64,000 nucleotides of DNA, taken from a virus. This document shows positions 44,636 through 45,481 of this stretch, piece after piece. Position 1 is the first letter of the stretch, and each line of letters starts with the position of its first letter. A model generated the notes under the pieces. It was not told the DNA's origin, searched no databases, and worked only from the letters and a program-made list of their open reading frames with translations. The stretch lies in IMG/VR virus record IMGVR_UViG_3300045988_085459. One strand, given 5' to 3'. The position numbers were made by a program, and so were the translations under genes.

Positions 44636-45481
44636 ATGAATGACCAGCTAGGCGCTCGCATGAAAGAGTTCTATGAGCAAATTCCAAAAACTCGACTTGT
44701 GCGTAGAATACCTGTAGCAATTAGAATTGATGGAAAAGCATTTCATACCTTTACTAAAGGTTTTAGAAAACCATTTGATGCGGTATTGACTTCGGCTATG
44801 CAAGAAACAATGAAATATTTATGTAAAAATATCCAAGGATGTGTTCTTGGATATACTCAAAGCGATGAAATAACTCTAATTCTTGTTGACTATAAAAAAT
44901 TAAATAGCGACGCATGGTTTGATTATGAAGTTCAAAAAATGTGTTCTGTAGCAGCGTCCATAGCAACAATGATTTTTAATAAGGTGTTTCGTTCAGCTAT
45001 TGAAAGATATGATATTGGTTGGAAAAATTCTTTAACTCCTCAGGGCGTAGAAATTCAACTTGAGCATCAAGAATATATGAGAACTTTACGGATAGCAAAC
45101 GCAAGAGGGGCTATGTTTGATGCTCGTGTTTTCAATATTCCGAAAGAAGAAGTAACAAATCTAATTTATTGGCGCCAATTAGATGCTATTAGAAATTCTA
45201 TTCAAATGGTTGGACAAGCGAATTTTTCTCATAGTGAACTTCAAGGTAAATGTAGTAGTGAAATTTTAGAAATGCTTATTTCTCAAAAAGGAATAGATTG
45301 GAATGAATTGCCCGTCTATTTACAAAGAGGTTCTTGTTGCATAAAAGACTGCGAAGAGACCGAAAGAGAGGATGGTTCAATCCATTTTAAACATTATTGG
45401 TTCGTCGATCTCAATATTCCTATTTTTAAGGAAGAAGATAGACTTTATATCGAAGACCTCATTCAACCAGTCGAATTTTGA
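44636..45481 (+). CDS. Thg1-like protein (tRNA-His guanylyltransferase family, 3'-5' nucleotidyltransferase)
   Basis: ATG 44636 after AAGGAGG SD; RIPVAIRIDGKAFHTFTKGFRKPFD matches the Thg1 catalytic N-terminal signature (vRiDGr.FhrFt...kPfD). Confidence 0.7.
   Translation: MNDQLGARMKEFYEQIPKTRLVRRIPVAIRIDGKAFHTFTKGFRKPFDAVLTSAMQETMKYLCKNIQGCVLGYTQSDEITLILVDYKKLNSDAWFDYEVQKMCSVAASIATMIFNKVFRSAIERYDIGWKNSLTPQGVEIQLEHQEYMRTLRIANARGAMFDARVFNIPKEEVTNLIYWRQLDAIRNSIQMVGQANFSHSELQGKCSSEILEMLISQKGIDWNELPVYLQRGSCCIKDCEETEREDGSIHFKHYWFVDLNIPIFKEEDRLYIEDLIQPVEF

Follow-up and report, generated by a model that had tools for sequence, protein, structure and literature searches.

The Thg1-like protein gene and its product

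The 64,000-nucleotide stretch of viral DNA analyzed here (IMG/VR record IMGVR_UViG_3300045988_085459, hereafter the window) encodes a Thg1-like protein (TLP) of 281 residues on its plus strand (44636-45481), among genes of RNA end repair and nicotinamide adenine dinucleotide (NAD) salvage and downstream of an array of 31 tRNA genes (9435-28729). The assignment of this open reading frame (ORF) as Thg1-like in the initial annotation, which had been made from the sequence alone, is confirmed together with its coordinates. The ATG at 44636 was taken as the start codon because homologs begin with MNDQLG or MPxNDxLG; a TTG at 44615, given in a mechanical ORF list, is ruled out by these homologous N-termini and by the ribosome-binding site, a Shine-Dalgarno sequence AAGGAGG (44620-44626, plus strand) that lies inside the upstream phosphatase gene near its 3' end and precedes the TLP start by 9 nucleotides. 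The TLP gene ends with TGA (45479-45481). The TAA of the phosphatase gene ends at 44634, one base short of the TLP start codon, and from this layout the two genes are predicted to be translationally coupled.

The initial annotation had proposed alignment to PF04446, the Thg1 family of Pfam, and had regarded either a lack of match or a lack of the carboxylates for two-metal catalysis as decisive against the assignment; the protein scores 99.1 bits with the profile, whose gathering score is 29.2 (E 2.4e-28), in a match that spans positions 3-130 of the 130 in the profile, and the carboxylates are present as D32, D77 and E78. The N-terminal catalytic block that had been singled out, RIPVAIRIDGKAFHTFTKGFRKPFD, is also found in the protein. 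The C-terminal Thg1C profile scores below its cut-off (21.5 versus 26.3 bits), no model of NCBIfam matched the protein, and PHROG 4717, which is annotated as tRNA-His guanylyltransferase, matches with E 2.6e-86. The best relative of solved structure is the TLP of Bacillus thuringiensis (BtTLP; PDB 4KGK), with E 4.8e-58 over an alignment that is nearly end-to-end and reaches residue 237 of the 245 in BtTLP, followed by an archaeal TLP (MaTLP; 5AXK, 1.3e-11), human THG1 (1.5e-7) and the Thg1 proteins of yeast and Candida (approximately 1e-7). An AlphaFold (AF2) model of the protein has a pLDDT of 84.5 and a pTM of 0.84, and the top 32 matches to this model in a Foldseek search of the PDB are all Thg1 or TLP chains, the only ones to reach significance, and BtTLP is the first of them (4KGM, E 7e-25, target TM score 0.83), with MaTLP next and the eukaryotic enzymes after it.

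The residues on which catalysis depends are conserved. The paper that described the BtTLP structure equated carboxylates D30, D75 and E76 with D29, D76 and E77 of human THG1 and also named the residues of the activation and transfer steps; D32, D77 and E78 of the phage protein align with the three BtTLP carboxylates, the activation residues (K45, S76, N187) and the nucleotidyl-transfer residues (R30, K101, R164) are present, and so are two further functional residues (E14, R180). All of the catalytic residues are invariant across an alignment of 36 homologs with the exception of K45, which is lysine in 30 of them and arginine in 6. In place of the eukaryote-specific HINNLYN motif, whose histidine stacks on the GUG anticodon, the phage protein has IRNSIQM within WRQLDAIRNSIQM, and only the activation asparagine is retained. 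Because HINNLYN is absent and because of how the sequence and fold matches rank, the protein is classified, on sequence, as a bacterial-type TLP and not as a true tRNA-His guanylyltransferase. The initial annotation had reached the TLP type by an argument from tRNA-His; the type was right, and its proper basis is homology, namely best matches that are bacterial and archaeal TLPs and the missing HINNLYN. A eukaryotic-type Thg1 function is ruled out by the absence of HINNLYN and by the G-1 encoded in the tRNA-His gene of the window. The fold and catalytic core are shared with eukaryotic Thg1 (human 3OTB, yeast, Candida 3WBZ), but the matches are at E 1e-7 with 16-20% identity, and the C73 and encoded G-1 of the phage tRNA-His make non-templated addition of G-1 unneeded. 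With BtTLP (4KGK/4KGM) the protein shares the fold, the carboxylates, the activation and transfer residues and the lack of HINNLYN; it differs in sequence (approximately 36-39% identity by structural alignment), in being phage-encoded within an island of RNA-repair and NAD-salvage genes, and in possessing an insertion. This insertion, which is specific to the clade, comprises about 38 residues at approximately positions 121-158 (44996-45112), between the palm domain and the C-terminal half, and in the AF2 model it lengthens two helices into a hairpin (residues 97-130 and 138-157). It is conserved in the clade as WKxxLTPQSVEIQ...Y...L..A..KG, with several positions nearly invariant in the 36 homologs, and is absent from BtTLP and apparently also from the TLP of Fusobacterium phage FNU3, as judged only by a shorter tblastn match.

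Genes of this kind are already known from phages, and the gene in the window is another member, from a large clade of uncultured gut phages that carries the insertion. A Thg1-type gene of Bacillus phage Bc431v3 was termed "highly unusual" in 2013, and a comparative study of jumbo phages in 2021 listed Thg1 as a sporadic RNA-repair nucleotidyltransferase of phages that restores tRNA 5' ends. By tblastn, homologs are found in 161 GenBank phage records, mostly annotated as tRNA-His guanylyltransferase, from phages of Bacillus, Prevotella (Lak phages), Caulobacter, Mycobacterium, Erwinia and other hosts. The PHROG 4717 genes of such phages (for example gp59 of FNU3, gp143 of Bc431v3 and gp378 of Bacillus phage G) belong to the same family and often, like the gene in the window, to large tRNA-rich phages, but no GenBank phage record exceeds 58% identity to the protein, and a megablast search with positions 43900-46700 found no nucleotide match among GenBank phages. 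In a metagenome protein database at least 8000 homologs have E values below 1e-10, the closest of them 97%, 87% and 85% identical, and many with 65-70% identity are encoded on contigs of 120-270 kb; in IMG/VR, at least 574 viral contigs encode a relative of the TLP.

The RNA-repair neighborhood in the window and in other phages

The strongest clue to function is the set of phosphatase, kinase, phosphoesterase and RNA ligase genes that flank the TLP gene, which the initial annotation had overlooked. All of the neighboring genes named here are on the plus strand. Immediately upstream is a calcineurin-like metallophosphatase of the lambda/NinI type (43903-44634, phrog_246); according to one published account (PMC2190708), the lambda phosphatase family is that of the 3'-end-healing domain of Clostridium Pnkp. 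Downstream are a P-loop kinase of the polynucleotide kinase/PSTK type (AAA_33; 45541-46074; phrog_505, 1.2e-18; bacter_Pnkp kinase domain, 6.7e-7) and a metallophosphoesterase (46071-46634, phrog_547) whose start codon overlaps the kinase stop codon in ATGA. An RNA ligase (37769-39040, phrog_968/PF09414) is encoded farther upstream as two ORFs split by an in-frame TAG at 38363-38365. The window thus encodes together, as judged by homology only, the 5'-kinase, the 3'-phosphatase/phosphoesterase and the RNA ligase of a heal-and-seal set. The arrangement resembles the heal-and-seal systems of T4 (Pnkp-Rnl) and of bacteria (Pnkp/Hen1) in placing a kinase, a lambda-type phosphatase and an RNA ligase around the TLP, and differs from them in that the activities are on separate polypeptides, no Hen1 was detected, the TLP gene stands between phosphatase and kinase, and the ligase gene contains the in-frame TAG. 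In nine related contigs this codon is GAG or GAA, encoding glutamate; in the window the TAG is a nonsense mutation or else an amber codon that is suppressed, and the phage has an amber-suppressor tRNA with a Gln-like acceptor stem.

Matches to consensus only, all on the plus strand, are a terminator-like hairpin (43820-43845) after the NAD synthase gene, a promoter-like site (43830-43858) just 5' of the phosphatase gene and a promoter-like TTGAAA-17-TATAAT (11 of 12 positions; 45497-45525) between the TLP and kinase genes. The hairpin and the promoter-like site before the phosphatase gene possibly mark the start of a phosphatase-TLP transcription unit. The NAD salvage genes (39252-43822) are predicted to encode a nicotinamidase-like protein (isochorismatase), a PRPP-synthetase-like protein, YqeY, NAMPT and NAD synthase. 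Between the tRNA array and the ligase are genes for an RNA-binding DUF2828/DUF7788 protein (28857-30377; phrog_850, E 3.6e-120), an 813-residue homolog of the eukaryotic major vault protein (30789-33230; shoulder domain E 9.5e-18, with Vault repeats), a weakly matching RlaP-like Pol-beta nucleotidyltransferase (34237-34821; just under the Pfam cut-off and about half as long as its homologs), a metallophosphoesterase (35049) and an RNase T-type exonuclease (36594); a Band-7 protein (46786) and a PIN-PhoH protein (48594) are encoded beyond the second metallophosphoesterase. The RlaP of a relative gave no tblastn match in the window, and the RlaP-like assignment remains weak. A major vault protein homolog is also annotated in one relative (L003), and similar sequence was found by tblastn in 7 of 80 IMG/VR TLP loci; the comparative study of jumbo phages from 2021 makes no mention of vault proteins.

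The neighborhood recurs. The TLP gene of a relative with 85% identity has the same order of phosphatase, TLP, kinase and phosphoesterase, and in relatives with 68%, 68% and 67% identity the TLP gene is near the same repair and NAD genes in differing orders: beside YqeY and NAMPT; beside a T4-type Rnl1, RlaP and an RNA ligase; or with kinase and phosphoesterase approximately 1.5 kb downstream. Counts of gene context in IMG/VR, which were taken over the 80 best of at least 574 TLP loci and 10 kb in either direction, place a homolog of a repair gene of the window near 38 of 80 TLP genes, versus 2 of 146 unrelated phage loci that served as a rough control. Two unrelated phages provide more independent evidence for the link between TLP and repair genes: in mycobacteriophage Kalah2 an annotated polynucleotide kinase is two genes away from the TLP gene, with an RNA ligase and metallophosphoesterases farther along, and in Rhodococcus phage Weasels2 the TLP gene is located amid genes for RtcB, PRPP synthase, NAMPT, a phosphoesterase and a 2'-5' RNA ligase. 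The pair of NAMPT and PRPP synthase thus accompanies TLP in Weasels2 as well; in Vibrio phage D181 both adjoin the tRNA array.

The 5' ends of phage tRNAs and the function of the Thg1-like protein

ARAGORN places the gene for tRNA-His(GUG) on the plus strand at 13736-13812 (mature portion 13737-13812), with a U1xC72 mismatch, C73, an encoded CCA and a templated G-1 at 13736, which makes it a candidate substrate of the TLP. The initial annotation was correct in reporting this G-1 opposite C73, which it had put at 13735, and in concluding that obligatory addition of G-1 is not required when G-1 is encoded. The imperfect first pairs that it described are likewise borne out by ARAGORN: besides U1xC72 in tRNA-His there are C1xA72 in tRNA-Met (12529) and U1xU72 in the amber-suppressor tRNA(CUA) (27598-27672), so that mismatches at 1:72 occur in three of the 31 tRNAs, with 2:71 and 3:70 free of mismatches throughout. 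The suggestion that all three are potential TLP substrates fared poorly. Bacterial initiator tRNA is typified by C1xA72, and in a sample of 859 unique phage tRNAs no other 1:72 mismatch is as common; C1xA72 occurs in 12 of the 61 tRNA-Met. The acceptor stem of tRNA(CUA) differs from that of the phage tRNA-Gln(UUG) only in having U in place of A1, and G73 is common to both; tRNA-Gln is known for a weak or open 1:72 pair, and U1xU72 is also present in four of the sampled phage tRNA-Gln. These two mismatches were rejected as repair substrates on the grounds that they are identity features of initiator tRNA and tRNA-Gln, which leaves only the U1xC72 of tRNA-His unexplained. Characterized TLPs extend 5'-truncated tRNAs and, to our knowledge, do not correct full-length tRNAs with mismatches; therefore, mismatched substrates would also need a 5' nuclease.

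The U1xC72 mismatch is real, as the acceptor stem is identical in three related contigs, two of which differ at one other position of the tRNA; a search for more diverged relatives with this tRNA-His, using an exact 34-mer and a degenerate pattern, returned only three near-identical contigs. In 21 of the 31 tRNA genes the trinucleotide TAT (typically within tatat, aatat or catat) ends right before the mature 5' end, and in the tRNA-His gene it ends right before G-1, a position which suggests that the mature tRNA-His begins with G-1. The TAT leader motif of the tRNA genes may be a processing signal or related to a promoter.

A survey of IMG/VR with a generic pattern yielded, among the matches listed, 77 unique phage tRNA-His genes, to which the following counts apply. 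The canonical configuration with G-1, G1-C72 and C73 accounts for 47, and 8 have G-1 with U1-A72; 16 have T at position -1 with C73 and thus no encoded G-1, as in the crAss-like phage DAC15; 3 have G-1, U1xC72 and C73 as in the window, in tRNAs that are otherwise different and in unrelated phages (L107, L167, L169); and 3 have other configurations. BLAST of two of these three phages (L107, L169) against GenBank found no close cultured relative, and a scan with a D-arm-specific tRNA-His pattern added nothing useful. Only one contig among the matches listed (L026/L126) is also among the contigs listed as encoding a TLP; its TLP is 64% identical to that of the window, and its tRNA-His is canonical with an encoded G1-C72. 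Canonical tRNA-His genes are also present in two other TLP-bearing phages, Bacillus phage G and Vibrio phage D181, and all 22 tRNAs of D181 are paired at 1:72; in Bacillus phage QCM8 and Rhodococcus phage Weasels2, which likewise bear a TLP, the tRNA-His gene lacks G-1 and has a C1-G72 pair and A73. These six data points on tRNA-His type versus presence of TLP reveal no trend. No tRNA-His gene lies within 10 kb of the TLP gene in the 80 IMG/VR loci, and no TLP gene was found in the flanks of 146 tRNA-His loci.

From its family, residues and gene context, the protein is probably an active TLP, that is, a template-dependent 3'-5' RNA polymerase that rebuilds RNA 5' ends as part of the RNA-repair island. 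The closest biochemical model is BtTLP, which favors 5'-truncated tRNAs of any identity 5- to 160-fold over addition at position -1, adds only nucleotides templated by Watson-Crick pairing, requires a 5'-phosphate that is activated with ATP, and can add G-1 opposite C73 with a kcat/KM of 5500 M-1 s-1 (Rao et al. 2011). By analogy with BtTLP and MaTLP, the phage enzyme would activate the 5'-monophosphate of a shortened tRNA with ATP or GTP and then add nucleoside triphosphates that pair with the 3' acceptor strand up to completion of the stem; with tRNA-His as substrate it could extend one nucleotide further by placing G-1 opposite C73. The adjacent kinase would supply the 5'-phosphate on ends that carry a 5'-hydroxyl, cleaning of 3' ends would fall to the phosphatase and phosphoesterase and sealing of nicks to the RNA ligase, with the predicted outcome that host tRNAs and the 31 phage tRNAs stay usable under attack by nucleases of host defense or turnover. 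Several points weigh against general 5'-end repair as the function. Conservation of the neighborhood among the gut-phage relatives is partly due to shared descent, and 42 of the 80 IMG/VR loci have no homolog of any repair gene of the window within 10 kb. The island may be incompletely functional, given the in-frame TAG of the ligase gene and the weakness of the RlaP-like ORF. Furthermore, no nuclease is known to us that attacks the 5' ends of tRNAs in infected cells.

The unusual 5' end of tRNA-His allows for more specialized functions, of which dedicated maintenance of G-1 is rather unlikely as the principal one, being plausible, on the features compared here, as a secondary or rival role. 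Under this explanation, the U1xC72 mismatch beside G-1:C73 would cause RNase P to cut part of the pre-tRNA-His between positions -1 and +1, and the TLP would re-add G-1 opposite C73 so that the host HisRS charges the phage tRNA-His. The ability of BtTLP to add G-1 opposite C73 and the persistence of C73 with a mismatched 1:72 pair in the three related contigs are consistent with it, but the TAT leader that ends before G-1 suggests that normal processing retains this nucleotide, and the TLP-bearing phages G, D181 and L026/L126 have canonical tRNA-His. QCM8 and Weasels2, which combine a TLP with tRNA-His genes that encode no G-1, might seem to be served by such an activity; however, their A73 is a poor template for G-1. 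In Kalah2, the half of the genome that was inspected shows tRNA-Gly as its only tRNA and no tRNA-His, and the lack of tRNA-His genes within 10 kb of the TLP gene in the 80 loci also argues against a dedicated function.

It is very improbable that the TLP performs 5'-editing like that of amoeboid mitochondria, by which G-1 and U1 would be removed and the TLP would rebuild G1 and G-1 on C72 and C73, converting U1xC72 to G1:C72. DdiTLP3 does likewise in the mitochondria of Dictyostelium, and the two systems have in common the enzyme family and a genomically encoded 5' mismatch in a co-resident tRNA; moreover, across pairs 1:72 to 3:70 of all 31 tRNAs, U1xC72 with G-1:C73 is the sole mismatch left unaccounted for by identity rules, and the same configuration appears in three unrelated phage tRNA-His of the 77. 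In contrast to Dictyostelium, where many tRNAs are mismatched, there is a single candidate tRNA here, known as a gene sequence with no sign that 5' nucleotides are removed, and the mismatch is not kept in the TLP-bearing relative, whose 64%-identical TLP coexists with an encoded G1-C72; full pairing at 1:72 in D181 points the same way. The window offers no candidate for the 5' nuclease, and in mitochondrial 5'-editing the nuclease that removes the mismatched nucleotides has not been identified. Taken together, the proposal that the TLP matures the aberrant tRNA-His of the phage, whether by rebuilding G1 and G-1 after removal of U1 or by restoring a G-1 lost on account of the mismatch, is unlikely; if true, rebuilding of G1 and G-1 would be the first tRNA 5'-editing outside mitochondria. 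More broadly, odd 5' ends of phage tRNA-His (U1xC72, no G-1 with C73, or no G-1 with A73) may be tied to TLP activity. There is also a slight chance that the TLP acts mainly on RNAs other than tRNA, as proposed for DdiTLP4, or has some other nucleotide-transfer role in counter-defense: TLPs can use non-tRNA substrates, the conserved helical insertion could change the choice of substrate, and the island encodes RNA-binding DUF2828 and vault-like proteins. Against this, all of the residues for activation of tRNA 5' ends and nucleotidyl transfer are conserved, the closest homologs are tRNA-repair TLPs, and nothing indicates a specific alternative substrate.

The locus leaves the prevailing view of the TLP family unchanged, and in that respect the window is one more case of RNA-repair and NAD-salvage equipment for counter-defense in a large phage. 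The locus is of value for its operon-like association of a TLP with end-healing enzymes and for a mismatched tRNA-His that constitutes a testable substrate. Rao et al. (2011) considered bacterial-type TLPs to be unlikely tRNA editors, since bacterial tRNA genes are without 5' mismatches; tRNA-His genes of phages, like the one in the window, provide a counterexample to that premise and could help decide whether reverse polymerization serves editing or G-1 maintenance during infection.

Other features of the tRNA array and of stop codons

In the window, the tRNA-Asp(GTC) gene that close relatives possess between tRNA-Leu(GAG) and tRNA-Ala (at 6796-7192 in L009 and 6525-6921 in L010) is missing from the corresponding interval (10568-11432); the spacer is 864 nucleotides long, versus 396 nucleotides in the relatives, and holds an ORF of 119 codons (10808-11167). 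The 74-nucleotide tRNA-Leu(CAA) gene (9573-9646) has no encoded CCA and has stem mismatches, and may be degenerate or mis-typed; tRNA-Asn (10045-10121) has two adjacent mismatches in its acceptor stem, 4:69 and 5:68. Overall, the stop codons of the ORFs in the window are TAA in 37 cases, TGA in 14 and TAG in 6. Apart from the RNA ligase gene, five ORFs of at least 90 codons end with TAG (between 22929 and 25574, and at 51586-51939), and two of these, at 24810-25136 and 25155-25574, are in one frame with TAG and 18 nucleotides between them, so that read-through fusions are possible.

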